From assembly GCA_965246965.1 (NCBI GenBank), contig CBDFGD010000002.1, positions 1,612,890-1,676,889 on the forward strand: a stretch of DNA of 64,000 bases, read 5' to 3'. This stretch comes from Vicinamibacteria bacterium. Its GTDB lineage: Bacteria > Acidobacteriota > Vicinamibacteria > Fen-336 > CBDFGD01. Below, piece by piece: positions 26,615-60,280 of this stretch. The notes under the pieces were generated by a model. The model was not told where the DNA came from. It did not search any database and saw only the letters and a program-made list of their open reading frames with translations. The stretch's first letter is position 1; every line of letters begins with the position of its first letter. The position numbers and the translations under genes were made by a program.

Positions 26615-26650
26615 GGAGGCGCAGAGACTCGGAGAACGGCCAAGGCGGCG

Positions 26651-27060
26651 TCATTGTGAGATTCCGACTCCGCAGCGTCATTCTGAGTGAGCGCTAGTCC
26701 CCGCTTGGAGGGAAGAATCCGTCTGCTCCTCTTCACTCGATCGTCAGCCGTTTCCACAAAGAGGGGCGGGCGGATCCTTCGGCCCGACCACGACTGACCC
26801 GGACTCAGGATGACGAGGAGTCGATCCGTCAATCGCCATCGCCGCCATCGAAAGCTTCGTCCCCTCGTCATTCTGAGCGACCGATCGTCTCCGCCTGGAG
26901 CGAAGAATCCGTCTGCCCTTCCTCACTTAATCGTCAGCCGTTTCCACAGAGAGGAGCTGGCGGATCCCTCGGCCCGGCCACGACTGAGCCGGCCTCAGGA
27001 TGACGAGGAGTCGATACCGTCGATCGCCGTCGACTTCATCGAAGTTGTGGCGCGTCTGCT
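26651..27060. repeat. Intergenic ~190-bp repeat family, locus B (two tandem units 26677-26866 and 26867-~27060, plus a partial upstream copy)
   Basis: The two units share a GTCATTCTGAGYGAVCG… start, an …AAGAATCCGTCTGC… segment, …CGTCAGCCGTTTCCACA… and …CTCAGGATGACGAGGAGTCGAT…. Its reverse complement is at locus A. Confidence 0.75.
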
Positions 27061-36000: not shown

Positions 36001-38533
36001 CATCCTCCAGAAGCTGCTCGGCATCTACGCCACGGCCGACCTGCTGCGCTTCGCGCCCCGTCCCCGCGCGTTCGCCTCTCTCTTCTGGTCGCAGCTGGGC
36101 GACCGTACGCTGCGTGAGTCGTGGCAACGGCGGGCGCGTAGCCTCGGACGGATGCGCGCGAGCTTCGCGCACAGCCCGGCGATCGATGCCTTCACGCTGG
36201 AGCTGGCGCGGGCCATCGGCGCGTTCTGTGAAGAGCGTGCCATCGCGCTCGACCCGCAGGACACACGCGTGGCCGGCTCCTACCTGTTCGAGGAGTTGGG
36301 GCGCGACCCCATGCGCTTCACCGTCAGCGCGGAGGCCGTGCAGCTGCGCGACGCCTTCTTCGAGCAGCTGGCGGCCGACGGCTCGCGCCGCGAGCTCGAG
36401 CACGACATCCGAGAACTGCAGGGAGACCTGAAGAACCTCTACTCCCTGGTCGAGGCCTGGGTGGCCGCCTTCGTCGACCGAACGGAGCGGCCGGAGATCG
36501 CCGATTTCCGGCCGGCGCTCGAAGGCGCGGCGGTGCTCATCGTCGCCGACGAGCGCCTCGATCGCGACACGTCGAGCGCGTTGCCGAAGGTGTCCGTCGC
36601 CGGCCTGCTCGGCCATCACGGTCGGATCAACGATCGCAGCCTCTCGTTGCGACTGGACGAGTTCCTCTCGCGTCTCGGTCGCTTCCGACACGAGCGCGTC
36701 CCGGCATTCCGGGCTTTCCAGGAGCTGCGCCACTCGCTGCTCGAGCGCGAGCGCCGCCGCCTCCGGATCACCGAGTTCGAGCCCCGCGTGATGAGCTCGT
36801 TCGTCAGGAACCGGCTGATCGACGAGGTGTATCTACCGATCATCGGAGACAACCTCGCCAAGCAGATTGGCGCCACAGGCGAGGGCAAGCGTACCGACCT
36901 GATGGGACTGCTGCTCCTGATCTCACCGCCGGGCTATGGCAAGACCACGCTGATGGAGTACATCGCCAATCGGCTGGGCATGGTCTTCATGAAGATCAAC
37001 GGGCCGGCCCTCGGCCACTCCGTCACCTCCCTCGACCCCGCCGCCGCGGGCAACGCAACCGCGCGCCAGGAGGTCGACAAGATCAACCTCGCCCTCGAGA
37101 TGGGCAGCAACGTCCTGCTCTACCTCGACGACATTCAACACACGCACCCGGAGCTGCTGCAGAAGTTCATCTCGCTGTGCGACGCGCAGCGCCGCATCGA
37201 AGGCGTGTGGAGGGACCACACGCGCACCTACGACCTGAAGGGCAAGCGCTTCTACGTGTGCATGGCCGGCAACCCGTACACCGAGTCAGGCGAGAAGTTC
37301 CAGATCCCCGACATGCTCGCCAACCGTGCCGACGTCTACAACCTCGGCGAGGTGCTCGAGGGGAAGGACGACCTCTTCGCGTTGAGCTACCTCGAGAACG
37401 CCCTCACATCGAGCGCGACACTGGCGCCCCTGACGACGCGAGATCACGACGACATCCACAAGCTGGTCGGCCTCGCGAAGAACGACGGGACGACGCCCGA
37501 CCAGCTCTCCCACCCCTACTCGGCACCCGAGCTGGAGGAGATCGTCTCCGTGCTCCGCAAGCTGATGAGCGTTCAGGAAGTCGTGCTGACGGTGAATCGT
37601 CAGTACATCCTCTCGGCATCGCAGGAAGACGCTTTCCGCACCGAGCCCCGCTTCCAGCTTCAGGGCAGCTACCGCAACATGAACAAGCTCGCCGAGAAGA
37701 CCGTCGCGGTGATGAACGATGACGAGCTGGAAGCGCTCGTTGACGACCACTACCTCGGAGAGTCGCAGACGCTGACGACGGGCGCCGAACACAACCTGCT
37801 CAAGCTGGCCGAGCTGCGGGGCCGGATGAGCGACGAGCAGAAACTGCGCTGGACCGAGATCAAGCGCACCTACGCCCGCATCCAGACGACCGGGGGCGAC
37901 GACGATCCGGTGACGCGGGTGACGGGTCAGCTCGGCCTCATGTCCGATCGTCTGGCAGACATCGCGGCGCGCATCGCGACGGCAGTGACGGACGGAGGGA
38001 GCGCGGCGGGAAGGCAGGACCTGGGAGCATCGCTGCTCCCCGTCCTCGAGAAGATGCAGCAGGCCGGCGTGGGCACGCCGCGCGAGACGGGCCTCAGCCC
38101 CGAGGCCGTCTCGGTCATCACGACGCACCTCGGTGAGCTGTCAGCCAAGCTCGGCGCGATCGGCGCGGCGATCGACGACGCCGCCAGCCGAGCACCCGCC
38201 GCGGCCGAAGCCGAGGCGCCGCTGCAGCCCTACCTCGACAAGCTGCAAGATGCCGTCGAAGCGATGTCGGCCAAGGGCGGCACGCGCCGCGAGGTGATTC
38301 AGACCCTGCCCGGCGGCGTCGGCGACCTGCTCGACGATCTGGCTCAGCAGGTCTCGGACTCGGTGATGCCGGCCCTACGGGGCATCTCGCGTCGCATCGA
38401 GGGCTCGGACGACAAGGTCGACCGCCGCGCCCGCACCGAAATCTCCAAGGCCCTCAAGCAGCTCGACCAGCTTCGCGATCTCGCCGGTGCGCTGCGGCGG
38501 CTGGACACCCGCGGCATCGGGGAGGAAAGCTAG
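33035..38533 (+). CDS. Giant (1832-aa) AAA+/P-loop ATPase-containing protein of unknown function, co-operonic with flotillin
   Basis: Walker A …LLISPPGYGKTTL… at about 36925-36950 and Walker B …VLLYLDDIQH… at about 37117-37143. Long predicted coiled-coil/helical regions. About 450-aa N-terminal and about 350-aa C-terminal regions carry no recognisable motif. Only 25 bp separate it from the flotillin stop. Confidence 0.7.
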   Translation: MADQEQTEPQASPEIERGAYEVIRERLVARAKELQQKTDSLNERRVELFGRTEFELLGTERLRTANNCVPRDVVQVGGRLLFGYNVHIGLRTETRVDDVFSLHRFEAEENGFRFEEIQQGPERAFLDDEAFVRDFKELYQYYKSARLLQLRQLETKLLAAFQIGAQLSDIKVFRWDVDGDGLASYRDNRGERDHAFPAPHDFEWTQTTRENHVQGRFPHVSILDEVFVETVGGDLTIKIENNTDAGLGIYAEPVEDERQSLDDAEIHYAKVGPLIIIKVLPYREREFRYFVFNTLTHGVERIDAIGQACLQLPEDHGLVFPGGYYLRSGHKKLFDGDWTSLEFQRQVRAPNGEDVLYVFHERAEGRSVLLPYNLIRKEVRNPVPCHGFSRFADGRMVVLRAQSEEPTRVHPMQTWQTPFCSEEHAAEAPEVEGDLGKIGNTELVRGISEALSLVRMTNDVEPTREVYEELISTAQRMLDAYYWLDSPDASGMNESVESIRETAEKVIDEFEKVEAIRRSTRGRVAEAAGNVQELLRTLDPEAWKSVPPFVDALVELRRQRGMVITLRDLRYVDRAALDGLEARVVEAFDKVAAGATDFLATEEALQPYHAEIAALEEASEAVATVHELQPQLEGLNDLAGKLDALSEIVTGIEIDDATVRTRILEGISEVLGGLNRARAVVEGRRKQLRSGEAVAEFGVQFQLFSQSVTSALAMADSPERCDEQLSRLMLQLEELEGRFGEFDDFLLQLQTKREEVYEAVSSKKQLLLDQRQRRSDALVEAAERILSSITRRTAGIASDDELAAYFAGDAMVAKLRDLVEKLRALGAAVRADELEARLKATRTDASRSLRDREDLYEEGAEVIRLGKHRFAVNTRRLDLTLVPRGDGMSLHLTGTEFYEPFDDPEFEKTKDLWSQELVSETTDVYRGEYLAAEILAAAEEERDGLTLSLLLEKSHDKASGELLELVRKYASERYDEGYERGVHDADTALILQKLLGIYATADLLRFAPRPRAFASLFWSQLGDRTLRESWQRRARSLGRMRASFAHSPAIDAFTLELARAIGAFCEERAIALDPQDTRVAGSYLFEELGRDPMRFTVSAEAVQLRDAFFEQLAADGSRRELEHDIRELQGDLKNLYSLVEAWVAAFVDRTERPEIADFRPALEGAAVLIVADERLDRDTSSALPKVSVAGLLGHHGRINDRSLSLRLDEFLSRLGRFRHERVPAFRAFQELRHSLLERERRRLRITEFEPRVMSSFVRNRLIDEVYLPIIGDNLAKQIGATGEGKRTDLMGLLLLISPPGYGKTTLMEYIANRLGMVFMKINGPALGHSVTSLDPAAAGNATARQEVDKINLALEMGSNVLLYLDDIQHTHPELLQKFISLCDAQRRIEGVWRDHTRTYDLKGKRFYVCMAGNPYTESGEKFQIPDMLANRADVYNLGEVLEGKDDLFALSYLENALTSSATLAPLTTRDHDDIHKLVGLAKNDGTTPDQLSHPYSAPELEEIVSVLRKLMSVQEVVLTVNRQYILSASQEDAFRTEPRFQLQGSYRNMNKLAEKTVAVMNDDELEALVDDHYLGESQTLTTGAEHNLLKLAELRGRMSDEQKLRWTEIKRTYARIQTTGGDDDPVTRVTGQLGLMSDRLADIAARIATAVTDGGSAAGRQDLGASLLPVLEKMQQAGVGTPRETGLSPEAVSVITTHLGELSAKLGAIGAAIDDAASRAPAAAEAEAPLQPYLDKLQDAVEAMSAKGGTRREVIQTLPGGVGDLLDDLAQQVSDSVMPALRGISRRIEGSDDKVDRRARTEISKALKQLDQLRDLAGALRRLDTRGIGEES

Positions 38534-38534
38534 C
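38291..38534 (+). repeat. 244-bp direct repeat copy 1 = native 3' end (last 77 codons plus stop) of the giant gene
   Basis: Aligns base-for-base with 40791-41034 at about 93% identity. Confidence 0.85.
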
Positions 38535-38558
38535 CGCCGCAGCAGTGCCGACCGGGGA

Positions 38559-40790: not shown

Positions 40791-41034
40791 GAGGTGATTC
40801 AGACGTTGCCGGGTGGCGTCGGCGACCTACTCGACGACCTCGCCCAGCAGGTCTCGGACTCGGTGATGCCGGCCCTGCGCGGCATCTCGCGTCGCATCGA
40901 GGGCTCGGACGACAAGGTCGACCGCCGCGCCCGCACCGAAATCTCCAAGGCGCTCAAGCAGCTCGACCAGCTTCGCGATCTCGCCGGCGCGCTGCGGCGT
41001 CTGGACACGCGAAGGATCGGCGAGGAAAGCTAGC
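40791..41034 (+). pseudogene. Orphan copy of the giant-gene 3' end (repeat copy 2), embedded in ORF 40713-41033
   Basis: About 18 nt differences from copy 1 but only 1 amino-acid difference (G to R) over 77 codons. Homology starts abruptly at GAGGTGATTCAGAC. Confidence 0.7.
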
Positions 41035-41394
41035 GGGCGAACCTCGTAGCGACTGCGTCGAGTCGAGTTGACGCCGCTACGCCGCCCGAGAATCGGGGGG
41101 CCGCTCATCTAGTTGCCGTTTCTCGAGCGGACGGTGTGGGTCGTCGGTGACGACGCCGTCATAGCGGCGGCGAGTGGGTCGTTCTACCGCGACGGCGAGC
41201 TACTGGCGCCGGAGGCGTACGGTGGACGGCTGGCCGAAGCCGAACAGCTGATGAGACTGTTCACCAGGCGTTAGCGGCAGGGGTCTCGTCGGGCGCGGCT
41301 GGCCTGCCAGCCGGCCGCGTATCGTCCTCGCGATCCCAGGAAGACATCGCTCTATCCGACTCCTCGAGGTTTTCTAAGCTTGTATCGCCGATCA

Positions 41395-45300: not shown

Positions 45301-45714
45301 TCAGCCGAGTGTGACGACGACCTGGTCGCCCTGGATCCGGGCCGGGTAGGTCTGCAGGCTGCGCGTCGCTGGTCCGTTGACGACGCCGCCGGACGTCGTG
45401 AATCGGGACCCGTGACACGGGCAGTCCAGCGTCGTCCCTGCCGCACCCGGCAGAAGCACCGTGCAGCCCTGGTGGGTGCAGACCCGAGAGACGGCGACGA
45501 CCATGCTCTCCGTGACACGCGTCACTGCGAGAGGACGGTCGCCATCGAATACCGGCGCCGTTTCGCCCACGCTCATCAAGGAAAGACGCAGCGTACGAGC
45601 CGCGGCGTCGGACGGCAACAACGGGCCCGTAGGAGAAGCCCCACCGCCGCGGCCCAGGCCGGCCGCGGCGGTGGCGGTCAGGGCTGCCTTTACGAACACG
45701 CGACGCTGGGACAT
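45301..45714 (-). CDS. Rieske (2Fe-2S) domain protein with Tat signal
   Basis: Twin-arginine SQRRVFVK in the N-terminus. Rieske boxes CTHQGC…CPCHGS. Confidence 0.7.
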   Translation of the reverse strand: MSQRRVFVKAALTATAAAGLGRGGGASPTGPLLPSDAAARTLRLSLMSVGETAPVFDGDRPLAVTRVTESMVVAVSRVCTHQGCTVLLPGAAGTTLDCPCHGSRFTTSGGVVNGPATRSLQTYPARIQGDQVVVTLG

Positions 45715-45750
45715 GCGCTCCACCCCTCGTTCAGACTTGGACCTTCGCAC

Positions 45751-47273
45751 GCTAGGAGTCTGCGCGGCAGTAGTTCAGCCCGGGTGTGTCATCGTGCCTT
45801 GTGACCCGAGAGATCATCTTGCCTGGGCTAAACGGCAGTAGTGGGCTCGCGGACGAGTGCTCGCGAGGGAGGACGGGCGGATCCAAGGCCGGGTGGTGGT
45901 CATACCCAGACCATCTTCCGATTGAGTCTCCTGAGGTTGAGCGCCAAGCAAACGAGATTCCACTCGGCGCTGGTTTTCTCAAGCCCTCGAAGGCTGAAGG
46001 ATTGGAAACCAAGCACAGCCTTGATCCATCCGAATGGCGGTTCGCCGAGTTTGCGCCGCTTGTACCACTTGCGACCACGTTTCGTCTTGAGCTTCGCCTT
46101 CATGCGGAGCGTCGCTTCGAGCTTCGAATTCGACGTTGGTGGAGAGTCTTTCTTTTCTCTCCCCAGAGCCACGAAACCGTCGATTCCGGTACGTTCCAAG
46201 TGCAGTAGGTTCTTTTCGGAACGGTAGCCGGCATCGGCCAGGGCACGCTTGGGCTTCTCACCGGTGTTGGCTTGAGCCGTTTTCAGCATCGGCTCGAGCT
46301 GACCGACATCCGCAGCGTTGTTGGTCAACCCGGTCGCAACGATCAGCTGCGATTTCTCGTCGACGGCGGCTTGGGCATTGAAGCACTGCTGGTAGCCACT
46401 CGAATCCTTCATGATGCGGCTTTCGGGATCGGTGAAGTTGTCCTGCTTCTTGTCCGGAGGTACGCCAAATCTCCTTTTGAACTTTGGCCCTCGCTTCGAT
46501 TCCTTGTCATCCCCTGGCCGACGTCCGGCCTGCTGATCTTCTTCCTTCTGACGGGCCTCCAGACGTGCCTTCGCTGCTTGGATTTTCTTGAGCCGTGAAT
46601 CTCGGCGCGCCAGCTCTTCTGGCAGTTCGTCGCCACGAAAATCAGGACCAAACTCGACGTCTTCCGCAGCATCTTCTTGTTTCGCAAGAGCGGTGATAGC
46701 CCGAATCTCTCGACGGAGCTGTTTCTCCGTTTTCTTCATACGCTCGTAGCTCATCGCCTTGTGCTTGCTGGCATTCGCCTTGACCTTCGTTCCATCCAGA
46801 ATCAACGTCCCAAGCTTGACCAAACCCACTTCTTGAGCCAGACGCACGACTTGGACGAATACAGATCGAAACTGGGACAAATGGTCACAACGGAAATCAC
46901 TGATCGTCCGGTGTGCCGGGAAATTGCCTCCGCTCAAATAACGGTATGCGACATCCTCTTCCAGCTTCTTCGCGATCCCACGAGACGAAAACGTCCCTGT
47001 CGCATAGCCGTAGATCAGAACCTTCAGCATCATTCGAGGATCGAATCGTCGGTTCCGACGTCCATCGCCCTCGTAGCGCTCGTAGAAAGCACGCACATCC
47101 ATCGCCTCCACCGTATCCGAGATGAAAAACGAAAGATGACCCTCCGGAAGCCAGTCTCGTGGATTCGACGGAAACAAACTCGATTGGTCAGGACTGTACG
47201 GACGGAAACTCGTTCCCATAACTTCAAAAACGCTCATTCACCCGATTTCGTTCCTGCCGCGCAGACTCCTAGC
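45751..47273 (-). mobile_element. IS1182-family insertion sequence, copy 1 (1523 bp)
   Basis: Perfect 17-bp terminal inverted repeats GCTAGGAGTCTGCGCGG / CCGCGCAGACTCCTAGC. Single intact transposase ORF. About 99% identical to copy 2, which lies in inverted orientation. Confidence 0.85.
45900..47237 (-). CDS. IS1182-family (DDE_Tnp_1 / DUF772) transposase, intact
   Basis: 445 aa. Conserved N-terminal block (…LIYGYATGTFSSRGIA…RYLSGG…) and DDE region. Confidence 0.85.
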   Translation of the reverse strand: MSVFEVMGTSFRPYSPDQSSLFPSNPRDWLPEGHLSFFISDTVEAMDVRAFYERYEGDGRRNRRFDPRMMLKVLIYGYATGTFSSRGIAKKLEEDVAYRYLSGGNFPAHRTISDFRCDHLSQFRSVFVQVVRLAQEVGLVKLGTLILDGTKVKANASKHKAMSYERMKKTEKQLRREIRAITALAKQEDAAEDVEFGPDFRGDELPEELARRDSRLKKIQAAKARLEARQKEEDQQAGRRPGDDKESKRGPKFKRRFGVPPDKKQDNFTDPESRIMKDSSGYQQCFNAQAAVDEKSQLIVATGLTNNAADVGQLEPMLKTAQANTGEKPKRALADAGYRSEKNLLHLERTGIDGFVALGREKKDSPPTSNSKLEATLRMKAKLKTKRGRKWYKRRKLGEPPFGWIKAVLGFQSFSLRGLEKTSAEWNLVCLALNLRRLNRKMVWV

Positions 47274-47274
47274 G

Positions 47275-48126
47275 CTCGAAAAAGACCCTGGATTCGCCCT
47301 GGCGTACACCGGCCTTGCGGAAATATGGGGAGCGCGCATGAACTGGGAACAGACGCCGCCGAGCGTTGGCATGCCCAAAGTGAGGGAGTTGGCGCTCCAG
47401 GCCATCGCTCTCGACGACTCGCTCGCCGAAGCTCACAACCTGTTGGCGAAGGCCTTCTACTACGGGGATTGGGACTGGCCGGCGGCCGAGCGGGAGTTCC
47501 GGCGAGCCATCGAGCTCAACCCCAACTATCCCTTCGCGCGCATGAACTACTCGTTGCTCCTGGGTTCCTCCAAACGCAACGAAGAAGGGATGGAACAGAT
47601 CGAGAGAGCCGTCGAATTGGACCCCCTCAATCTTCTTTGGAGAACGGGTCAGGGGTGGCAATTCATGATCTCGGATCGCTTTGGCGAGGCGATCGACGTT
47701 TTTCGGGAGACGCTGTCCGTAGGCCCCGTCATGCCAGCCCAACACTTTCTCTGGGCATCTTTGCGGCACGAAGGGAGGTTGGACGAGGCGTGGGCCGAGG
47801 GGAAGAAGACGTTCGTCCTCAGACGCGATCCGGAGGTCGTGGAAGCCTTGGACACGGGCTATCCGGAGTCGGGCTACGAGGGCGCGATGCACAAGGCGGC
47901 CGAGATCCTGGAAGATCGGTCGACGCGGGGGTACGTACAGGCGAGCATGATCGCACGGCTCTACGCCCACGCCGGGGAGGACGATCAGGCGATGGACTGG
48001 CTGCAAAGGGCGTACGAGGAGCGCGACATTATGATGACGCAGCTCGGGGTGGATCCGGACTGGGCCAGCCTCCGCGCCGACCCACGGTTTCGTGATCTCC
48101 TGGAGCGTATCGGGATTCCACAGTAG
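47275..48126 (+). pseudogene. C-terminal TPR-repeat fragment of a Ser/Thr kinase gene disrupted by IS insertion and inversion
   Basis: The frame is open from the IS boundary. …LEKDPGFALAYTGLAEIW… plus several 34-aa TPR-like repeats. It joins in-frame to the kinase fragment at 58728 once the IS is removed. Confidence 0.7.
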
Positions 48127-48179
48127 CCGAGGATCGACCCGTGACGATGGCGGCCCCAGGGAGAAAGGCAGGGAATCGC

Positions 48180-48791
48180 ATGAAGAAGGGACACACGGCA
48201 GCCGCATGCTTCCTGGCGCTGGGGTTTGGGACCATCACGTTCATTCTCTTTTTCGTCGAACCGGGAATGGGGTTCTCCGGGCCAGCCGACTTCTTCGATC
48301 CCGCGAAGGTCGTGAAGGGCAGCGCATCCCTTGCCTGGCTGGTGGGCGATCTCGTCCTTCTCGGCTTCGGCGCAGCGCTCGGGTATCTGGCCTCATCCTC
48401 CAATGACCGATACCTCCGTGCGAGCGGGCTGAGCGCCGCCGTCCTCTTTGTCTTCATCGGCTGCCTGGGGCGCGTTCTGGCCGGGCTCCCGGCCTTCATT
48501 GGGAACGCCGGCCACCTGGAGATCGCGGTGTTGGGGCTCGTCCCCGTTCGGCTCGCCGCACTCCGAACCGCAGTCCTGGCCTTCGGCTTCTTCGCCTGGC
48601 GCACCACCCGAGACAATGAGCCCGGGGAGCCGACTCCCGCCGCCTGGCGAGGCCTCGGCTATCTGGTGCTCGCCGCCAGTGCCGTCTTCGTCTTCGTCTT
48701 CGTTCCGGCGCCTCCGCTGTTCGCGATCTGGGCGGCCTGGTTCGCGCTCCGCCTGGCTCGAACGCCGAACGAGATAGATTCATCGGCCTGA
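48180..48791 (+). CDS. Hypothetical membrane protein
   Basis: Five hydrophobic helices. No recognisable family. Confidence 0.3.
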   Translation: MKKGHTAAACFLALGFGTITFILFFVEPGMGFSGPADFFDPAKVVKGSASLAWLVGDLVLLGFGAALGYLASSSNDRYLRASGLSAAVLFVFIGCLGRVLAGLPAFIGNAGHLEIAVLGLVPVRLAALRTAVLAFGFFAWRTTRDNEPGEPTPAAWRGLGYLVLAASAVFVFVFVPAPPLFAIWAAWFALRLARTPNEIDSSA

Positions 48792-48866
48792 GTCGCTCGC
48801 TGCCGATCTCGACGACCGTGTCCTCCATTCCGGCGCAGGCGCAGGAGGAGCTCCATGAAGGCGACG

Positions 48867-49700
48867 CTACTTGCCCATCCCGTCGGGGGAGCCCTTGTAG
48901 TACCGGAAGGTCTCCACGATCTTGCCGTCTCTCTCTATCAACCGGCCGCGGCGCAACTCTTCTTGGGCCTCCTGTTCTTCGGGTGCAAGCTCGGGTCCCG
49001 TGTACTTCTCCCACCCCGGGCGGGACTGGCTGACGTACCTGGTGCGGGCGCGCACCTTCCGCTCCGCGTAGTCCGTGATGTCCACCCAGGTATTGATCGC
49101 CTCCTGCGGCGTGTCGTAGAAGAGGAACTCCGGGATGCGGTGGGCCGTCAGACCCTCTTGAACGATCTGCCCCTCGAATAGGAGGCGCCACATGGCCACG
49201 CGGGTGGCATCGGCGGCGAGATAGGAGGCCGCCCGATGGTCCGACTTGTGCCAGCGCCGGTGGACGGGCCCTGAATCGAAGGCGAGCAGAACGTCGGGCT
49301 TGTGGGTGCGGATGATCCGCACGAGCTTACCGACGACTTCCATCTTGTCCGCGAACTCGAGCAACCCGTCGTCGTAGCCCAGGTTGATGTAGTGATCCTC
49401 GGGAATGCCGATATCGGCCATCGCGGCGAGCTGCTCTTGTCGGCGGATCTTCGCCAGCTCGAAGCGCGACAAGTCCGGATCCTGGGTCCCGACGTTGCCG
49501 GTCGTGATGAGCGCGATGTACACCTCGTTGCCGTGGTCCTGAAGCATCGACAACGTGCCGTGGGATCTGGAGTCGTCGTCGGGGTGCGCGCCGATCAACA
49601 GGATCGTCTTGCCGGTCCACTCCTCGACCGGCACCTCGGGCTGTGCAAGGGCTGGAGTGCACAGAAAGAGCGTTGCCAAAAGGAAGACGAATAGGGCCAT
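48867..49700 (-). CDS. PIG-L/LmbE-family N-acetylglucosaminyl deacetylase (secreted)
   Basis: Signal peptide and the zinc-binding AHPDDD motif of the LmbE-like superfamily. Confidence 0.7.
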   Translation of the reverse strand: MALFVFLLATLFLCTPALAQPEVPVEEWTGKTILLIGAHPDDDSRSHGTLSMLQDHGNEVYIALITTGNVGTQDPDLSRFELAKIRRQEQLAAMADIGIPEDHYINLGYDDGLLEFADKMEVVGKLVRIIRTHKPDVLLAFDSGPVHRRWHKSDHRAASYLAADATRVAMWRLLFEGQIVQEGLTAHRIPEFLFYDTPQEAINTWVDITDYAERKVRARTRYVSQSRPGWEKYTGPELAPEEQEAQEELRRGRLIERDGKIVETFRYYKGSPDGMGK

Positions 49701-49803
49701 CGATCACCTCCGGGGGAAACGACAAGATGCCATCGCTGCGGGCGTCCGCAACCCGTCAACGCGCTCCGGCCACTCGGATTCTCGCTCAACATGCCGTGCT
49801 TGA

Positions 49804-50313
49804 TCAGTCAGCCGCATTGGGCGCGGGTTCCGGCGTGTCTCCCCACCCGAGCCACCGCCTCAGCAGCGAATCGACGCTGACAGGCCCCGGTCCGAAGACG
49901 ATCAGCCAGATCAGGAACAGCAGGAAGACGACGGGGACGACGTCGGTCAGCCCAGCGGCGCCCGTGCCTCGCAGCGCGTCGAGAAATCCGCCTCGGTCGG
50001 CGGTCATCAGGGCCACCACCATCGTCGACGCGAGGCCGATCGCCACGAACCGGGTCAGCAAGCCCAGGATGATCGCGATACCCCCGTAGTACTCGAGGCG
50101 CGACACGAACGCCGCGTTCAGCTCCGGGAAGGGGATGCCGAGGCTCGTGAAGAACGCGATCACGTTCTCCATGTTCGCGAGCTTGCCACCGCCCGTCTGA
50201 TAGAAGGCCTGTCCGATCGCCAGGCGCGTCAGAAGGGGTGGTAGGAAGGCCAAAGCGGCGGCCGCGGCGAGGCCGATTCTCTGAATTCGCAGCAGATCGT
50301 CCGTCGTCGACAT
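49804..50313 (-). CDS. DoxX-family membrane protein
   Basis: Four transmembrane helices with a DoxX-like composition. ATG at 50313 preceded by GGAGGTGATC. Confidence 0.55.
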   Translation of the reverse strand: MSTTDDLLRIQRIGLAAAAALAFLPPLLTRLAIGQAFYQTGGGKLANMENVIAFFTSLGIPFPELNAAFVSRLEYYGGIAIILGLLTRFVAIGLASTMVVALMTADRGGFLDALRGTGAAGLTDVVPVVFLLFLIWLIVFGPGPVSVDSLLRRWLGWGDTPEPAPNAAD

Positions 50314-50547
50314 GATCACCTCCGAGCCGGTACGGCAGGTTAACTTTCTCTGGGCGGCAGCGGTGCCGGGGCCGCCCCCGGGGGAGCAGCCGGGCAAGTG
50401 GCTCCGATCGCGAGCGAATCGAAACAGCTCGCAGTCCGGCGCATCGTACGGCGGTCCAACGGGCGGCGCCCAAACCGACACTTGCTAGAGTTCACGCGAT
50501 GAAGCCGACGACTCGCTACCGGAACGCCGAAAGACTTCTGAGCGGTC

Positions 50548-52352
50548 GTGCATCGCCGTGACGCGTCGATCACACTCGGCGCCAGCCGCGCACGCGATCG
50601 CCGTCGACCTGGGCTTCAAGAAGCCGTCAGACGAAGCGTTCGATCGATCGCCCGGCTCGTGACCCGCAGTCCGACAGCTGTCCCGTCCAGCGCGGCGCGC
50701 CGTTGGGTCTACGCGCTATTGGCTATAGGGGTGCTGTTGCGACTCGCGCTGCTCGGGCGAGACCTCCCCTACTACGCCGTCGACGAGAACGACGTCGTCG
50801 AGCAGACGTACATCTTTCTAGCTGGGGATTTGCGCCCATCCTTCTTCAGCTACGGTCCGCTGGTCAGCTACCTCCTGGCCGGCCTTTGCGCGCTCGGCTG
50901 GGGAGTCATGAGTGTCGTCGAGGGCTGGCATCTCTCGGACGTGATCTATCGGGCAGTCTTCGAGCCCACGCCGTTCTACGCCGCGGCACGGCTGCTTCAC
51001 GCCTCGGCGGACGTCGCCGCCGTGGCGCTCGCCGCTCGTCTGGGGGCGCGCCACGTCAGCGGCCCGACGGGCTGGGCAATCCTGGGCCTCGGCTCGGCGC
51101 CATTGCTCAGCCTCAACACCGACTTCACGATCGGCAACGACACCTTCCAGGGCTTGCTCGCATTGGCCGCCCTCGGGTTCGTCGGAAAGAAGGATCGAGC
51201 TCCGAATCGGGCCGTCGCATTCGCCGGTGCTGCGGCGGGCCTGTCTCTCGCGGTCAAGCCGCTGCAGGGGTTGCTGGTGATGCCCGCGCTCCTCCTGGCC
51301 ATCGTGATTCCATCAGCAGCCGAGTCGCGCCGCGCGGGATGGCGTTCCGTAGCCGCTTCCGCGAAGCTCCTGGCGGTCTTCGGCGCCTCTCTGGTCGGGA
51401 GTCATGCGGTGGCGAACCCGTACTCGGTCCTCGAGTTCGGCCGGTTCTGGCGAGAGAACGCCGGCTGGATCGAGCGGACGGCCCCCTCCACCGGGTCGGG
51501 GTGGCATTTCGGCTGGTGGCTCGATCTGGCCGGCTGGCCGCTCGCTCTCTTCGCCGCCGTCGCCGTCGCGGCCGGGTTCACCCTCGTCCGCAACACCGCG
51601 CCGCGCGCGTTGCTGCTCTACGTCCTGACTGTCGTCGGTGTCTATCTCTTCGTCGGCGTTCGCCCCTATTGGTACAACGCCGTGCTGCCGGCGGTTCTGG
51701 TCCTGTGCGGAGCGCTGATCGCGAAGTTGTCGGGTCGCAGCGGCTGGCGGTCGGCCGACGTGGCGATCGTGCTGGGCTCGGTGCTCGCCGCCGTGCCGCT
51801 CGCCAACTCCGCCGGCGAGGCCTGGCGGGCCTGGTCGCCGGAGCCATCTCTCGAGCGGCGGCCCGACCGAGCCGCGCAGGTTTGGATCGAGGAGCGCTCC
51901 CCTCCGGCAGCCGCCTATTGGTCGTGGGACGCTACGGGCAAGGGGCGCCGCGCCTGGTGGCAGAGACGCCCAAGGTGCACGGGGTGTGGGCCGACCACTT
52001 CATGTACGGTCGCGGATCCAGCCGCAAATGGAACGACGTGTTCCGCACGGCCTACAGGCGACATCGCCATAGCGGAGCTCCGCTGTACTGGATTACGAAC
52101 GTGCGGCGCGACTACACCGATCGCTGGCCGGATCCCGTGGTGGTGGAGCGGATGCACGAAGTCCCGCCCGCCCTGGCCCGAATCGCGAATGCCCGCTACA
52201 TCGTCACGGCGTCCTCGTCGCGTTTCGTCGGGCGTTGGGAGGGTCGGAGCGACGTGCGGCTCCTCGCGACCTTCACCGCGGAGCCCGGGGCCCGCGCCGA
52301 GAGCGAAGTGAAGATCTTCGAACTGGTCGCATCCGAAGACGAGCCTCGATGA
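50548..52352 (+). CDS. GT-C superfamily membrane glycosyltransferase (family 39 / ArnT/PMT-like), apparent frameshift near 51850-51920
   Basis: Multiple transmembrane helices with the loop …YYAVDENDVVEQTYIFLAG… of a DE-containing GT-C type. The C-terminal roughly 140 aa continue in another frame (…LLVVGRYGQGAPRLV…). Start uncertain. Confidence 0.45.
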
Positions 52353-52391
52353 ACAATCGGGAGGGCTGCTTTCATGTCGGTTTCGTCGTGA

Positions 52392-52823
<432 letters not shown>

Positions 52824-53019
52824 TTGCTGGCTAGAGGCAAACTCCCAAAGGTGGCCCTGGTCGCTGGCATGAGGAAGTCTCCATAGATCTGGAACGAAAA
52901 GTAGACGAGGCCCAGGGCCAGCGTGCTCCCGCGTTGGTCCTCGTAGTTCTCAAAGATCGCATCGACGTGGACAGCACACCCGCCGGAGTCTGCGCGAACT
53001 TCCCGACCTGAGACCTGAC

Positions 53020-53074
53020 CCCACGTGCTTCGCCACGTGCTTCGTGACCCCACGTGCTTCAAGCCCACGTGCCT
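53020..53074. repeat. Tandem array of four CCACGTGC(T/C)TC motifs (E-box-like CACGTG palindromes) at 12-17-bp spacing
   Basis: Read directly at 53020, 53032, 53049 and 53064. Intergenic, between the IS110 remnant and the 3' end of the lipoprotein gene. Confidence 0.6.
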
Positions 53075-53129
53075 CAGCCGGTGCGAAGCTGCCGGCGCTC
53101 CAGAGCCAGAAGTGGCTTCTATGCGAGCG

Positions 53130-53591
53130 TCAGTTCTGGGCCGGTTGACGGTTGGGGTATACGGGAGCGCGAATCAGCTTGATTTCGGGGCGGGCGGCCA
53201 GCGACCGCAAGGCGGAGAGCGGGAGACGCGCCGCGACACGATCAGAAGCGACTGCCTCGACCTTTCCGCCTGCTTGCCCGATGGCGTCGGCCGTCAGGTT
53301 CGGGTCGGCGCCATCCATCAACTCGAGGACAACCAGTACCATCCCCGTCTCGGCCTGCCAAGCGAGATCCTCGGACTCGAAAGCCTCGCCGGCGGCTTCG
53401 GCCGCAATCGCCAGCTTCAGCTGATCGGAAAATTTGGCGTCCGCCTGGGCCGCGGTAACTTCCGCACTAGCGCTCTCTGGCGCCGCTGCGGACGCTGGGC
53501 TCCCGGGGGCCTGCTCCGGTTCGGGGTTCGGCGGCGAACAGCCCGCGAATGTGAGCGCGGCGCAGAGAATAGCGAATTGTCGACACATCAT
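53130..53591 (-). CDS. Hypothetical lipoprotein
   Basis: Signal peptide with lipobox LTFAGCS. Ala/Glu-rich mature part. Confidence 0.4.
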   Translation of the reverse strand: MMCRQFAILCAALTFAGCSPPNPEPEQAPGSPASAAAPESASAEVTAAQADAKFSDQLKLAIAAEAAGEAFESEDLAWQAETGMVLVVLELMDGADPNLTADAIGQAGGKVEAVASDRVAARLPLSALRSLAARPEIKLIRAPVYPNRQPAQN

Positions 53592-53974
53592 AAGATCCCT
53601 CCAAAATGATCCGCGGGCGACGGTATCCCGAATGGACGGGCGTCTGCAAAGCGGTCATCGGCAGCACACGACGTGCCAGGGCACGCTGGGCAGTGGGGGA
53701 GACCTCTGCGTAGTGATCCCACCCAACGGCCGGAGGCCGGATCGGCACCGCGGCCGCGTGGACTGGTCGCGGTGGGCGTGGTCCCCGGATGGTCGGCGGC
53801 GCCCCGCTTCTGCTCGATGGGGACGGCACGGCGACCTACGCAGTCGACAAAGACGCCACGGCGACCTCCGCGCGACTCACACGCGAGCGAACAATGGCGA
53901 GCAAGGAAGAGGAGCTTGACCAGGGTGAACATCGCGGCGAGGTACCGCCGTGCCATGGATCTCCGCTACTCCGG

Positions 53975-54502
53975 TCAACGCCGTACGATCCCGAGAGAGA
54001 ACCGCCACTGCGACGCCTGGTCGTCGAGGCCGGTGAGCCGATAGTCGACCTGGGCTGCCCGCAGCGTCCAGCGATCGGACAGGCGCACGTCGACCCCGCC
54101 TCCCAGCTCGGAGGCGAAGCTTGTGCTCCAGGGGCAGCCGCCGCGGCAGACGCCGGCGGCGCCGATGGCGAGGCCGAACACTTCGACCTGCCGCCGCGAG
54201 CGCACGGCCCCCCCGAGGGCGTGGACGAACGGACTCAGCCGACGCTTTCTCAGAAAGGAGAGCCGCGGACCGACCAGCATCGCCAGCTCGTCCAGGGACT
54301 CGCCCGCCGTGGTGCCGAACTGTCCGTTCGCGACCGCCTGGAGCATCAGCGTATCGCCGAGGGACAGCGCGAAGCCGAGGCTCGCGCCGTGCACACCGTC
54401 GCCGCCGAGGCGGAGCTGCGAATAGGCGCCGGACAGCTCGGCAGCATCGGACCGTAGCCCGCTCGCGAAGATGGCGAGCCCGAGGAGTGCGGCGCGGCGC
54501 AT
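53975..54502 (-). CDS. Small outer-membrane beta-barrel protein (OmpW/OmpA-N-like)
   Basis: Signal peptide, alternating amphipathic strands and a C-terminal …FSLGIVRR. The longer annotated ORF upstream is antisense to DUF1501. Confidence 0.4.
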   Translation of the reverse strand: MRRAALLGLAIFASGLRSDAAELSGAYSQLRLGGDGVHGASLGFALSLGDTLMLQAVANGQFGTTAGESLDELAMLVGPRLSFLRKRRLSPFVHALGGAVRSRRQVEVFGLAIGAAGVCRGGCPWSTSFASELGGGVDVRLSDRWTLRAAQVDYRLTGLDDQASQWRFSLGIVRR

Positions 54503-54567
54503 CGCGCTTCTCACGCGAAGATCCCCGGATCCGGACCGGCCGCACCGGGGACGACCTGGGACGAATC

Positions 54568-55737
54568 CTACACGCCGAGCCAGCGCGCCGCCGCCACGAA
54601 GACGTCCCGAAAATCGGCCGTGTGCGCCAACTCGCGTCCATCGTTGAGCGCGGAGGCCGACAGCCCGGGCCAGTCGCCGTGGACGCGGCCGCCGCGCACC
54701 GAGCCTCCCAGGAACAGACCGCAGTGCGCCGCCCCGTGGTCCGTGCCCTGGCTGCCGTTCTGCGCCGCGGTCCGGCCGAACTCCGTCGTCACCATGAGCA
54801 GCACGTCGTCGATGCGAGAGCCCAGGTCCTGGCGAAAGGCCACGAGCGCCTCGCCGAGCGGTAGGTAGTCTGCGCTGTTGCCCGCGAGCTGGTTGGCGTG
54901 GGTGTCGAACGCCCCCGGGACGTTGACGTAGATGCAGCGCGTCCCCAGGTCCGCCCGCACCAGCTGAGCGGCCTGCCGCAAGCCGGACCCGGCGGGGCCC
55001 ACGGGGTACTCGGCACCGCCCTCGGGTAGAGCGTGCAGGGCGGGCGTCGTGCGCGCCAGGGCCACGGCATCGAAGACGTCGCGTCCGCTGCGGTGCGCGA
55101 CAGTGTCCTGGGCCGCGTGAACCTCGCGGAGCAACGACTCGGCCTCGGCCGCCCAGTCGGCCGCTCCGCTGCCCGCGCGCAAGGCGAAGCCTTCGAGGCT
55201 CTGGGCCACCAGCTCCGGGTGGGGCCCGAGCACCGCGCGGGGAGTCCGGCTCGAGAGCGCCACGAGCTGCCACAGCTCTTCGCCGGGCAACAGCCGAGCC
55301 ACGCGCTCGAGCCAGCCGTCCCGCGTGGTCCTGTCGCCGGGCGTGCCCGTGTCCATGAAGTCCTGGGCGTCGAAGTGCGAGCGCGTGAGCTGCGCGTTGC
55401 CGATCGACGGGTGCAGCGCCAACACTCCCTCCCGGTACAGGGGCTCGAGAGGCGCCAGGTCCGGGTGCAGCCCGAAGAACCCGTTCAGGTCGACCACGCC
55501 ATCCCCGGCGCGCAGCGCGATATCCGGCCGCAGCGCGTAGTAGTCGGCGTCTCCGTGCGGCACGCAGAGATTCAGCCCGTCCGCGCCGCCGCGCAGGAAC
55601 ACCTGGACCAGGACGCGGCCGTTTGGCAGGGCCGCCTCGGCGGCGCGGGTCAAAAACGCGGAGGGCGACAGACCGAAGCCCACCGCGGGCAGGCCGGCCC
55701 CATGGACGAAGATGCGGCGCGAGGGATCGAAAGCCAT
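54568..55737 (-). CDS. DUF1501 family protein (Tat-dependent sulfatase-like)
   Basis: Characteristic DUF1501 blocks and the pairing with the upstream DUF1800 gene. Confidence 0.75.
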   Translation of the reverse strand: MAFDPSRRIFVHGAGLPAVGFGLSPSAFLTRAAEAALPNGRVLVQVFLRGGADGLNLCVPHGDADYYALRPDIALRAGDGVVDLNGFFGLHPDLAPLEPLYREGVLALHPSIGNAQLTRSHFDAQDFMDTGTPGDRTTRDGWLERVARLLPGEELWQLVALSSRTPRAVLGPHPELVAQSLEGFALRAGSGAADWAAEAESLLREVHAAQDTVAHRSGRDVFDAVALARTTPALHALPEGGAEYPVGPAGSGLRQAAQLVRADLGTRCIYVNVPGAFDTHANQLAGNSADYLPLGEALVAFRQDLGSRIDDVLLMVTTEFGRTAAQNGSQGTDHGAAHCGLFLGGSVRGGRVHGDWPGLSASALNDGRELAHTADFRDVFVAAARWLGV

Positions 55738-57124
55738 CTATTTCACCTGAAAGGCCGGGCTGGCCAGGGCCAGGCCCACGGCTCGGAACGCAGCGGGCAG
55801 CGCAGACGAGCCGCTCACCCGCCCGCAGGCCGCGAGCACCTCAGGCGGCAGCGTCTCCGCGAAGATCAACCGATCGACGGCCTGCGCCGCTGCGGCCGCG
55901 TCGCCGGGGTCGCCATTGCCGATCAACGCCCGCAAATCCACACCGATGCCCGGAAGGGTCTGGCTCACGACCGACAGCGCGAAGTTGAAGCGCGTCAGGT
56001 GCGAGCCGGGGTTCGGGATCCAGTCGGAGCCGCGGTCGCTCCAACCTGTGGGATCGAGCGCGCCGTAGGTGGGCATGCCCATGGACTGCAGCCCATCGGC
56101 CCCCAGTAGCGCGCGCGGGTTCGCGACCTCCGCCCCGACCGCGCGCAGCACGGCGGTCACGTACTCGTGAGGGGTGCGTAGCTTTCCCGAGCCAAAGGCC
56201 TCGTCCCACAGCTCGGCCGAGCCCAGCAGCGTCCGCATCACCTCGGAGAGGTCGCCGCCGCTACTCGAGAAGGACGAGGCGACCTGCCCGACCAGGCTGT
56301 CCGGCGGATCGTCGGAGACGAAGCGGCGCGCGAGCTTGGTGGCGACGAACCGTGCGGTCGCAGGATGGCTGGCCAGCAGATCCAGGACGTCCTCGCCGTC
56401 CTTCTGGCCCTGTCCAGGCGGGAGGCGCCGGCCGAGCACGTCCTTGGCGCCGTCGTCATGAAGCCGGCCGCGGTAGGCGAATCCGCCGCCCCGGTTGAGC
56501 CCCCAGCCGGTGAAGGCCCGGGCGACCTCCTCGACGTCGCGCTGCGAGTAGCCGCCGTCGACGCCCAGCGTGTGCAGCTCCATCAGCTCGCGGGCGTAGT
56601 TCTCGTTGATGCTGCGGGCGGAGCTCAGGTAGTTGTCGAGATAGGCCATCATCGACCACGAGTGCGCCACGGCGCCCAGCAGATCGCGAAAACGTCCCAG
56701 CACGAAGGGGCGGATGGCGTCGTACTCGTAGCGGATCAAGCCGAGGAGCGTCAGGCGATCGCCGCCGAACACGTTGAAGTGGTTGAACCAGAAATCGGTC
56801 AGCACCTCCTGGAGCTGGTTTTTCCCGTGCACCGCGCGGATGAAATGCGCGCCGAGCAGCTCGAGCCGCGCGGTGGCCAAAACGCGCGGGTTGGCTTCGG
56901 AGCGCGTGAGCAGCTCGCCGATCGAGGCGTTCAGGCTCGAGTGCCCGACGAGCCTGCCGTCCAGGTTGGGATCCGTTCCCGGGTCGAGCTGGTCTTCCAG
57001 CCAGCGTTCGATGCCGCGGTCGGTGACCTCCGCCAGGCTCTCGGGGCGCGGCCCGAAGCCGAAGCGGTTCAGCGCGAAGCGAGCGAGCCGGGCTCCCGGC
57101 GAGGGCGTGTTCATGGGGGCAGGC
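55738..57124 (-). CDS. DUF1800 family protein
   Basis: Conserved DUF1800 blocks. ATG at 57124. It abuts the DUF1501 gene, the canonical pair. Confidence 0.75.
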
Positions 57125-57203
57125 CTCTTGTGCTTGGACCGGTTTCGGGGACCCCTGGTTGAAGCGCCAGCCCGAAGAATCTGCGGGACCCGCTTCAACC
57201 CCG

Positions 57204-58727
57204 GCTAGGAGTCTGCGCGGCAGGAACGAAATCGGGTGAATGAGCGTTTTTGAAGTTATGGGAACGAGTTTCCGTCCGTACAGTCCTGACCAATCGAGTT
57301 TGTTTCCGTCGAATCCACGAGACTGGCTTCCGGAGGGTCATCTTTCGTTTTTCATCTCGGATACGGTGGAGGCGATGGATGTGCGTGCTTTCTACGAGCG
57401 CTACGAGGGCGATGGACGTCGGAACCGACGATTCGATCCTCGAATGATGCTGAAGGTTCTGATCTACGGCTATGCGACAGGGACGTTTTCGTCTCGTGGG
57501 ATCGCGAAGAAGCTGGAAGAGGATGTCGCATACCGTTATTTGAGCGGAGGCAATTTCCCGGCACACCGGACGATCAGTGATTTCCGTTGTGACCATTTGT
57601 CCCAGTTTCGATCTGTATTCGTCCAAGTCGTGCGTCTGGCTCAAGAAGTGGGTTTGGTCAAGCTTGGGACGTTGATTCTGGATGGAACGAAGGTCAAGGC
57701 GAATGCCAGCAAGCACAAGGCGATGAGCTACGAGCGTATGAAGAAAACGGAGAAACAGCTCCGTCGAGAGATTCGGGCTATCACCGCTCTTGCGAAACAA
57801 GAAGATGCTGCGGAAGACGTCGAGTTTGGTCCTGATTTTCGTGGCGACGAACTGCCAGAAGAGCTGGCGCGCCGAGATTCACGGCTCAAGAAAATCCAAG
57901 CAGCGAAGGCACGTCTGGAGGCCCGTCAGAAGGAAGAAGATCAGCAGGCCGGACGTCGGCCAGGGGATGACAAGGAATCGAAGCGAGGGCCAAAGTTCAA
58001 AAGGAGATTTGGCGTACCTCCGGACAAGAAGCAGGACAACTTCACCGATCCCGAAAGCCGCATCATGAAGGATTCGAGTGGCTACCAGCAGTGCTTCAAT
58101 GCCCAAGCCGCCGTCGACGAGAAATCGCAGCTGATCGTTGCGACCGGGTTGACCAACAACGCTGCGGATGTCGGTCAGCTCGAGCCGATGCTGAAAACGG
58201 CTCAAGCCAACACCGGTGAGAAGCCCAAGCGTGCCCTGGCCGATGCCGGCTACCGTTCCGAAAAGAACCTACTGCACTTGGAACGTACCGGAATCGACGG
58301 TTTCGTGGCTCTGGGGAGAGAAAAGTAAAGACTCTCCACCAACGTCGAATTCGAAGCTCGAAGCGACGCTCCGCATGAAGGCGAAGCTCAAGACGAAACG
58401 TGGTCGCAAGTGGTACAAGCGGCGCAAACTCGGCGAACCGCCATTCGGATGGATCAAGGCTGTGCTTGGTTTCCAATCCTTCAGCCTTCGAGGGCTTGAG
58501 AAAACCAGCGCCGAGTGGAATCTCGTTTGCTTGGCGCTCAACCTCAGGAGACTCAATCAGAAGATGGTCTGGGTATGACCACCACCCGGCCTTGGATCCG
58601 CCCGTCCTCCCTCGCGAGCACTCGTCCGCGAGCCCACTACTGCCGTTTAACCCAGGCAAGATGATCTCTCGGGTCACAAGGCACGATGACACACCCGGGC
58701 TGAACTACTACCGCGCAGACTCTTAGC
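57204..58727 (+). mobile_element. IS1182-family insertion sequence, copy 2 (1524 bp; inverted relative to copy 1)
   Basis: Same inverted repeats, with the right repeat carrying a T for C (…GACTCTTAGC). One extra T at 58326 relative to copy 1. Confidence 0.85.
57240..58578 (+). pseudogene. IS1182-family transposase, frameshifted (1-nt insertion at 58326 creates an in-frame TAA)
   Basis: ORFs 57240-58328 and 58216-58578 together equal the copy-1 transposase. GAGAAAAGTAAAGACTC here versus GAGAAAAGAAAGACTC in copy 1. Confidence 0.75.
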
Positions 58728-60280
58728 TCGAAGTACTCCCTGGCCCTCTCGACCTGATCGGGGTTCAAGCTGTAGAAGTGGAAAAGGCCCTTGAGATAGT
58801 CATCGTAGGCTTGGGGGTCGACTGCGTCGGCCTCGCTCAGCCGATTCTCTTCGTTGGGTGTCAGCTTGGCCTGGATCTCGCGGGCGACCGCCCGGGCGAC
58901 CTCACTCTGCAACGCCAGCAGGTCACCCACGTCGCGCATATAGGTGCGCGCCCAGAGGTGACGATCGGTCGGGGCGTGGACGAGCTGGGCGGTGATCCGC
59001 ACTCGGTCACCCAACCGGGCCGCCGAGCCCTCGATTACGGCTTCGACGTCGAGCTCCGAGGCGATTTCCGGCAGGCTCTTGTCTCTTGCTCCTTTGTACT
59101 GCATCACCGAGGTCCGCGAGATCACCCGCAGTGAGCTGATCTGGGCGAGATCGGCGCTCAGTGCCTCGGTCATCCCGTCCGCGAAGTACGCCTGGTTCGG
59201 GTCTCCGGAGAGGTTCTGGAGCGGCAGGACCGCCAGCGATCGAATCGCCGGCAGGGCGAGCTCGGTGGCAAACGGCTCCTCGGCACCTGGCGACCTGAGA
59301 GCCGTCCAGCCCACCAGCCCGCCGATGACGGCCACGGCGACGAGCCCTACCATCCACCGAACACCGGTTCGTCGTCTCGCTCCGACTCCCCTGGTTGCCC
59401 CCTGCAACCGCGTCTCGGGCTCCCCGCGGGTGGTGAGCTGCTGGCGAATCTCGTCGACATGCTGCGGCCGTTCGTCCGGGTCCTTCTCGAGACAGCGCCT
59501 GACGAGCTCGTCCAAATAGCCGGGCACCGACGGTTTGAGCTCTCCCAAAGGCTGCGGCTGATCCCGAAGAACAGCCGCGAGGAGGTCCGCCGCGCTCCCA
59601 CCGGCGAACGGCCGGCGGCCGCTCAGCATCTCGTAGAAGATCACGCCCAGGCTGAACAGGTCCGAGCGCTGGTCCACGGGCTTGCCCTGCGCCTGCTCCG
59701 GGCTCATGTAAGTCGACGTGCCCAAGACCTGGCCGTCCCTGGTCAGCGCTTCGGTGGTTTCGGTCGCCCCGCTTCCCGCCTCCATTCGTCGCTGCTTGGC
59801 GAGCCCGAAGTCGAGGACCTTCAGCCGCCCGGTGTCGGTGACCATGACGTTGCGGGGCTCGAGATCCCGGTGGGTGATCCCCTCGGCGTGGGCGGCGGCG
59901 AGAGCGTCAGTCAAGGGAACTGCGATCTCCATGAAGTCGTCGATGCCCATGCCGCCGCCGGGGATCAGCTCGGTGAGTGTCGAACCCTCGACGAGCTCGG
60001 TCGCCAAGAACCGGACTCCGTCGGCTTCTTCGATGGAATAGATGGTGAGGATGTTCGGGTGATTCAGCGCGGCGAGGGCTCGGGCCTCACGTGCGAAGCG
60101 GCTCAGCCGATTGGCGTCGCCAAAGAGCTTCTCCGGCAGCACCTTGATGGCCACCTCGCGCCCGAGCTTGGTGTCCTCCGCCCGGAAGACAACTCCCATG
60201 CCGCCCTGTCCGAGCTTGGCAGTGATCCGGAAGTGGGCAAGGCTTCTGCCGATCACGAAACGAAACTCGGCCGGTTGCAC
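58728..60280 (-). pseudogene. Ser/Thr protein kinase (Hanks-type), N-terminal portion; 3' end severed by IS1182 copy 2
   Basis: GQGGMGVVF, VAIK, HRDLEPRN, DFGLAK and SPEQ subdomains. A transmembrane helix and the start of a TPR region (…AREYFE|) end exactly at the IS boundary. Continuation at 47275. Confidence 0.75.

Follow-up and report, generated by a model that had tools for sequence, protein, structure and literature searches.

A Hanks-type kinase gene split between two inverted, CTAG-bounded IS1182-family copies in a Vicinamibacteria bacterium, and its probable origin by insertion and recombination

Here we analyze a stretch of 64,000 nucleotides from a Vicinamibacteria bacterium (assembly GCA_965246965.1, contig CBDFGD010000002.1, positions 1,612,890 to 1,676,889 of the forward strand), referred to as the window, in which two insertion sequence (IS) copies lie in opposite orientations 9,930 bp apart and a gene for a Hanks-type Ser/Thr kinase with a transmembrane (TM) segment and a tetratricopeptide repeat (TPR) region is divided between their ends. 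All positions are those of the window. An initial annotation, made from the DNA letters and their open reading frames (ORFs), had described the copies as IS1182-family elements of 1523 and 1524 bp with about 99% identity, and both the alignment and the transposase family support this, with the identity at about 99.7%. As drawn there, copy 1 occupies 45751-47273 on the plus strand and copy 2 occupies 57204-58727 on the minus strand. Within these limits copy 1 consists of a flanking G (45751), CTAG (45752-45755), a core of 1513 bp (45756-47268), CTAG (47269-47272) and a flanking C (47273), and the core of copy 2 spans 57209-58722. The copies form the one large inverted repeat of the window, with arms at 46149-47273 and 57204-58328 (1125 nt, 100% complementary) and a second arm pair at 45751-46156 and 58322-58727 (406 nt, 99%).

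Copy 1 contains an intact transposase gene (45900-47237, minus strand) of 445 amino acids, a single ORF that fills the 1.5-kb element and matches DUF772 and DDE_Tnp_1/DDE_Tnp_1_6 (PF05598, PF01609 and PF13751). The protein scores 363.8 bits against the NCBIfam model NF033551, "IS1182 family transposase" (cut-off 270, E=1.5e-108), and falls under the cut-off of every IS5, IS4, ISNCY and IS1380 model of NCBIfam; related transposases align to its residues 6/7-445. In copy 2 the corresponding reading frame (57240-58328, plus strand) is a pseudogene: as the initial annotation had noted, a single inserted base, an extra A at 58326, causes a frameshift, so that translation stops after 362 amino acids, short of the C-terminal part of the DDE domain. 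In addition to the frameshift, one terminal CTAG of copy 2 is mutated and its left repeat has a mutation in the conserved GCGGCAG. Copy 2 is defective.

A global alignment of the two copies contains only four transitions and one 1-nt insertion, namely G/A at IS position 5, C/T at positions 18, 78 and 169 (C>T in copy 2 on the left-to-right strand, at 58710, 58650 and 58559) and the extra A at 58326. All five fall within 402 bp at the left of copy 2, with none in the 1,122 bp that remain, a clustering for which our own post hoc arithmetic, (402/1523)^5, gives p ~0.001. Such clustering suggests that the two copies exchanged sequence or underwent conversion, and not that they decayed uniformly from a clean duplication. 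The stretch in question (58559-58723 and 58326 in copy 2, compared with 45755-45919 in copy 1) adjoins the N-terminal kinase fragment, and on the sense strand of the kinase gene each of the four substitutions is G>A or C>T. Deamination associated with read-through transcription, partial gene conversion or a third copy contributing to a mosaic could each account for the clustering. The 2-kb windows centered on the IS copies (46000-47999 and 57000-58999) have a G+C content of about 58%, against 64-72% around them, which is consistent with a horizontally acquired element.

The two parts of the kinase gene lie at opposite copies. The N-terminal fragment (58723-60280, minus strand) encodes the kinase domain, the TM segment, a middle domain and the start of the TPR region, and ends with ...GAG TAC TTC GAG CTA. 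The C-terminal TPR fragment (47269-48126, plus strand) starts with CTA GCG CTC GAA AAA GAC (L A L E K D) and has its stop codon at 48124-48126. The initial annotation had let the N-terminal part end at 58728 and the TPR part continue at the right end of copy 1 (47274), and these junctions are indeed where the two parts meet the IS copies. In the public annotation, the N-terminal part runs into the IS as an ORF of 547 amino acids (58637-60280, P0001), which is the N-terminal part plus 29 IS-derived residues, and this truncated ORF is itself the only 100% match to the joined protein. Both fragments align to single homologues: about a hundred proteins of 750-900 amino acids, 45-57% identical to the join, span 99% of it. 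The initial annotation had named a failure to align to one homologue as a refutation, and its reading thus passes that check. The joined protein matches Pkinase at residues 19-275 (E=4.2e-47) and TPR_2/TPR_14/TPR_17 at residues 570-766, and the full-length homologues share this architecture. The N-terminal and TPR parts are the halves of one gene.

The insertion site in this gene was rebuilt in three ways, that is, according to the join proposed in the initial annotation, with the IS owning both CTAGs, and with one CTAG kept in the gene. The proposed join (58728 on the minus strand to 47274 on the plus strand) had been described as in frame with zero extra bases. It is in frame, giving 801 amino acids, but it is 6 nt and thus two residues short: the Leu-Ala at the junction (EYFE|LA|LEKDP), present in every aligned homologue (all 93), is missing because its codons were assigned to the IS ends. 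These codons can be read on either side, as ...GAG TAC TTC GAG CTA|a next to the kinase part and as CTA GCG CTC GAA AAA GAC... at the TPR part. With one CTAG kept (...TTCGA GCTAGC GCTCGAA...), the gene encodes 803 amino acids and reads ...EYFELALEKDP...; an intact gene at an empty site would read ...TTCGAGCTAGCGCTCGAA.... Over 11 junction columns this version has gaps in none of the 93 aligned sequences, and the restored Ala is conserved in 91/93. Re-pairing of the flanks at the kinase site thus restores a contiguous ORF, ungapped against 92 homologues; at the other junction the flanks are intergenic. An IS that includes both CTAGs and leaves no target-site duplication was rejected as a model, since the gene then frameshifts with a stop at amino acid 540. 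The kinase target (58721-58740 joined to 47269-47285) is an imperfect palindrome, TTCGAG-CTAG-CG-CTCGAA, which is why the join that is 6 nt shorter stayed in frame and looked seamless.

The ends of the element were defined by comparison with 80 loci (L001-L080) whose transposases are 58-64% identical to that of copy 1, which together provided 129 ends of related elements. The hosts include Acidobacteriota/Terriglobia, Chloroflexi, Myxococcales, Marinobacter, Vreelandella and others, and the elements have the common termini CTAGGAGTCTGCGCGGCAG ... CTGCCGCGCAGACTCCTAG. CTAG is constant in the 129 ends, and the next base outward varies (G in 66, C in 39, A in 18 and T in 6). The initial annotation had described perfect 17-bp terminal repeats (GCTAGGAGTCTGCGCGG). 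This 17-mer has four matches in the window where chance would give 0.77, and is perfect at three of the four ends but mismatched at the left end of copy 2; its outermost G/C, moreover, is flanking DNA and not part of the IS, because the base outside CTAG varies. In copy 1 the repeat CTAGGAGTCTGCGCGGCAG is perfect at both ends, and the left repeat of copy 2, which reads GCTAAGAG..., has two mismatches to it. The 19-bp terminus CTAGGAGTCTGCGCGGCAG is near-invariant among the 80 loci (for example, L008, L014, L042, L045, L054, L067, L069, L071 and L076), although the transposases are only ~60% identical and the hosts span several phyla. Many of the related copies lie in palindromes of the type ...CCGGG|CTAG|CCCGG..., with repeated flanks such as ...AATCCGGG|CTAG|CCCGGATT... 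or ...ATGCGGG|CTAG|CCCGCAT..., which suggests that repetitive extragenic palindrome (REP)-like sequences with a central CTAG are preferred as targets.

In the window, each of the four IS ends has a CTAG, which in one case (58726-58723, the end of copy 2 next to the kinase part) has mutated to CTAA. The second target site reads ...CGCAC G CTAG|IS|CTAG C CGGGG... and is thus GCTAGC as well. Because CTAG is palindromic, a 4-bp CTAG duplication, a 2-bp TA duplication and a cut within CT^AG (0 bp) would give the same sequence; all three models need exactly one CTAG in the empty site, and exactly that is seen in the kinase gene. The earlier view of a seamless join without target-site duplication does not hold: the element is bounded by CTAG, the original target was GCTAGC, and the repeated CTAG, one of which restores the gene, is an apparent target duplication. 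A literature search for a description of the IS1182 family with a CTAG target returned nothing relevant.

The flanks of the copies are crossed. At its left end copy 2 borders the N-terminal kinase part, and at its right end copy 1 borders the TPR part. The outer flank of copy 1, at its left end, is the upstream region of a Rieske [2Fe-2S] protein gene (45301-45716, minus strand; twin-arginine-type leader MSQRRVFVK...). Copy 2 borders at its right end the upstream region of a DUF1800 gene (57116-57203, minus strand), the remaining half of the second target site, which is intergenic. Recombination between an IS in the kinase gene and an inverted IS in the spacer between the Rieske and DUF1800 genes would be expected to give this geometry. 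A CTAG-targeting IS1182-family element occupies two GCTAGC sites 9.9 kb apart and in opposite orientations. One of them falls within the 803-amino acid kinase-TM-TPR gene, between the codons for ...EYFEL and ALEKDP..., and the other in the short intergenic region between the Rieske-protein gene and the DUF1800/DUF1501 pair. Homologous (RecA-type) recombination between the 1.5-kb inverted copies would then have flipped 9,930 bp. In the un-inverted order, the Rieske gene and the DUF1800-DUF1501 pair would be divergent across roughly 130 bp. The repeat structure, the IS family, the CTAG at each end and the continuity of the split gene are observed; the order of events and the recombination route we infer, and we give insertion followed by homologous recombination a probability of about 0.58 as the most likely explanation. 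Recombination between IS copies is the main source of such inversions and accounted for ~70% of the large rearrangements in the Escherichia coli long-term evolution experiment (PMC4173774).

Several points weigh against this explanation. The resulting structure is identical to that produced by one-step intramolecular replicative transposition (PMC4471558), and the pairing of target-site duplications cannot show two prior independent insertions because both sites carry CTAG. The best full-length homologue of the kinase is only 57% identical, so that neither an empty-site nor a synteny comparison is possible, and the orientation rests on assembly across a perfect inverted repeat of 1,125 bp. Other copies of the IS were not retrieved, and a 30-nt IS probe had no match in genome or metagenome contig collections. 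GC and AT skew over 30-64 kb carried no signal by which an inversion of 10 kb could be judged. The initial annotation had taken the arrangement as the signature of insertion followed by recombination. That an IS-bounded inversion split one gene agrees with our analysis, but the signature is not unique to this order of events, since the one-step route is equivalent in its product.

In the one-step alternative, a single IS in the Rieske/DUF1800 spacer would have attacked the GCTAGC in the kinase gene of its own chromosome, through replicative intramolecular transposition "in trans" or through Tn10-type intramolecular strand transfer, and this single event would make both the second inverted copy and the inversion. 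The Shapiro-type "in trans" product that we derived, a-[L>R]-TPR ... DUF1800up-[R<L]-kinaseN, is exactly the arrangement observed and puts the target CTAG at the two new junctions. The near identity of the copies, with 1,122 bp free of any difference, speaks for the same route, as does the ability of IS903, a member of the related IS5 family, to form cointegrates at low frequency. For IS26 such a route is documented and has been argued to be more parsimonious than insertion plus recombination (PMC4471558). Replicative transposition is, however, undocumented for the IS1182 family, in which IS1272 is described as acting by "cut-paste-and-cut" (PMC5678879), and five differences in one 402-bp stretch would be unexpected if the copies had been born identical and had then decayed uniformly. 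A single IS attacking the kinase target from the spacer is thus possible, if on the unlikely side, and inversion by the transposase in one step, be it intramolecular replicative or an inside-end strand transfer into GCTAGC, is on balance rather doubtful. We favor insertion followed by recombination because it relies on a general mechanism, because replication is undocumented in this family and because the differences are clustered.

A further alternative concerns the assembly. The chromosome, or most cells, could carry the un-inverted order, a simple IS insertion in the kinase gene and a second IS in the Rieske/DUF1800 spacer, with the inverted one arising from a wrong path through the identical repeats or from a mixed population. 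The right-hand 1,125 bp are 100% identical, so that shorter reads cannot fix the orientation, and inverted repeats of 1.5 kb are expected to flip reversibly. By our own reasoning, both isomers would have identical junction sequences, and for this reason the content of the window does not discriminate between them. Yet the gene is recorded on a contig of 5,117,661 bp, which suggests a finished, probably long-read assembly, and the copy-specific variants kept in the left 402 bp indicate that the copies were not simply collapsed; we consider an artifact of orientation or a mixed population improbable. Still further from likely is an origin from two paralogous kinase genes, each hit at a homologous site and followed by IS-adjacent deletions, or from a composite transposon of 12.98 kb. 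The kinase/TPR architecture is very widespread (7,996 matches at E<=1e-20), and by whole-part bit score the N-terminal and C-terminal parts have different best-matching proteins. However, the fragments are complementary to the codon and restore ...EYFELALEKDP... without a gap. In 30-residue sliding windows, the closest relatives P0002, P0004 and P0008 show an excess similarity over other homologues that arises at about residues 450-470. It amounts to +16 to +24 points where a window ends before the junction (519/520) or barely reaches it, and persists past the junction. The change in affinity marks a domain boundary and not the IS junction, and because it starts before the junction, fragments from two paralogues are very unlikely. 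The composite transposon was rejected: such an element would have both gene halves outside it, flanking its outer ends, but here only the kinase half is outside, at the outer end of copy 2, and the TPR half is enclosed, at the inner end of copy 1.

The inverted segment (47274-57203, 9,930 bp) contains, besides the TPR fragment, a number of genes that the initial annotation had listed. Family matches agree with it for PIG-L (48867-49700, minus strand), DoxX (49804-50481, minus strand), DUF1501 (54568-55737, minus strand), DUF1800 (55738-57114, minus strand) and an IS110-type C-terminal remnant (52422-52823, plus strand; Transposase_20, E=8.5e-14). The last of these has no matching N-terminal domain nearby and is a second, older mobile-element scar within the segment. 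Two further labels were not upheld. The gene called GT39-like encodes a membrane protein (50548-52311, plus strand) with a weak, sub-threshold match to PMT_2 (E=0.005), and neither the claimed outer-membrane barrel nor a number of ORFs lying at 48.0-49.2 kb and 53.0-54.6 kb had a match in Pfam or NCBIfam. The C-terminal part of an ORF at 53975-55273 (minus strand) may be a small signal-peptide protein. A small ORF at about 53975-54500 on the same strand has a signal peptide (MRRAALLGLAIFASG…) and no match in Pfam/NCBIfam; it may be what had been called the barrel. Another ORF (53130-53591, minus strand) has a lipoprotein-like leader (…LTFAGC…), also with no Pfam/NCBIfam match.

Elsewhere in the window there are other repeats. 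Tandem pairs of a ~190-bp unit, 85-92% identical, are present at 10632-10931 and 26603-27015, about 16 kb apart and inverted; the units contain motifs like TCGTCATTCTGAGCGA and resemble intergenic repeats of the miniature inverted-repeat transposable element (MITE) or REP type. A direct repeat of 249 nt (38291-38539 and 40791-41039; 92% identity, 2.5 kb apart) probably reflects two paralogous genes or domains in tandem.

Taken as a whole, the locus is a genuine but ordinary IS-bounded inversion, one more case of an IS-mediated inversion and an inactivated sensor kinase, and of little importance beyond this genome. The inversion has no evident function, there is no sign of a regulated switch, and the kinase gene is disrupted in either orientation. 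The annotated "kinase" of 547 amino acids (P0001) is a truncated pseudogene. The correction of the join is of some practical use: in a widespread IS1182-family lineage with CTAG at its ends and as its target, boundaries and "missing" target-site duplications are easily misjudged when sequence is the only guide, and a join that is in frame and looks "seamless" may nonetheless be off by 6 nt. Orientation across a perfect inverted repeat of 1.1 kb is a possible assembly ambiguity. If the one-step route were true, the locus would be natural evidence that replicative transposition is possible in the IS1182 family, namely in its CTAG-targeting branch.

In IS5 and those IS5-family members that target CTAG or TA, CTAG serves as the target and also as an apparent 4-bp (or, for TA, 2-bp) duplication. 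The element described here resembles them in its CTAG targeting and in a DDE transposase with a DUF772 N-terminal domain, but its transposase is below the cut-off of all IS5-family NCBIfam models and above that of IS1182 only. As in the IS150 and IS1 inversions of the E. coli long-term evolution experiment (PMC4173774), near-identical copies in opposite orientations bound the inverted DNA, the breakpoints lie exactly at the IS ends, and an IS-interrupted gene is split between the two junctions. Unlike those inversions, the one reported here is small (9.9 kb), involves an IS1182-family element in a high-GC bacterium, and comes without an ancestor or an alternative isomer for comparison. The arrangement is also identical to the "in trans" product of IS26 (PMC4471558), with an inverted segment between inverted IS copies and with the target duplication and a gene or operon split between them. 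IS26, however, is an IS6-family element with known replicative transposition and leaves diagnostic target-site duplications of 8 bp, whereas here the same CTAG at both sites is uninformative. The IS1182 family itself is heterogeneous, and some of its members target palindromes, according to a passage in PMC5678879 that cites Siguier et al. One of them, IS1272, was reported to delete its target stem-loop and to leave no target-site duplication (PMC5678879). The present element shares with IS1272 the transposase family (NF033551) and the insertion into a palindromic context. In contrast to IS1272, nothing is deleted here: CTAG is present on both sides of the element, and a single CTAG restores the gene exactly.

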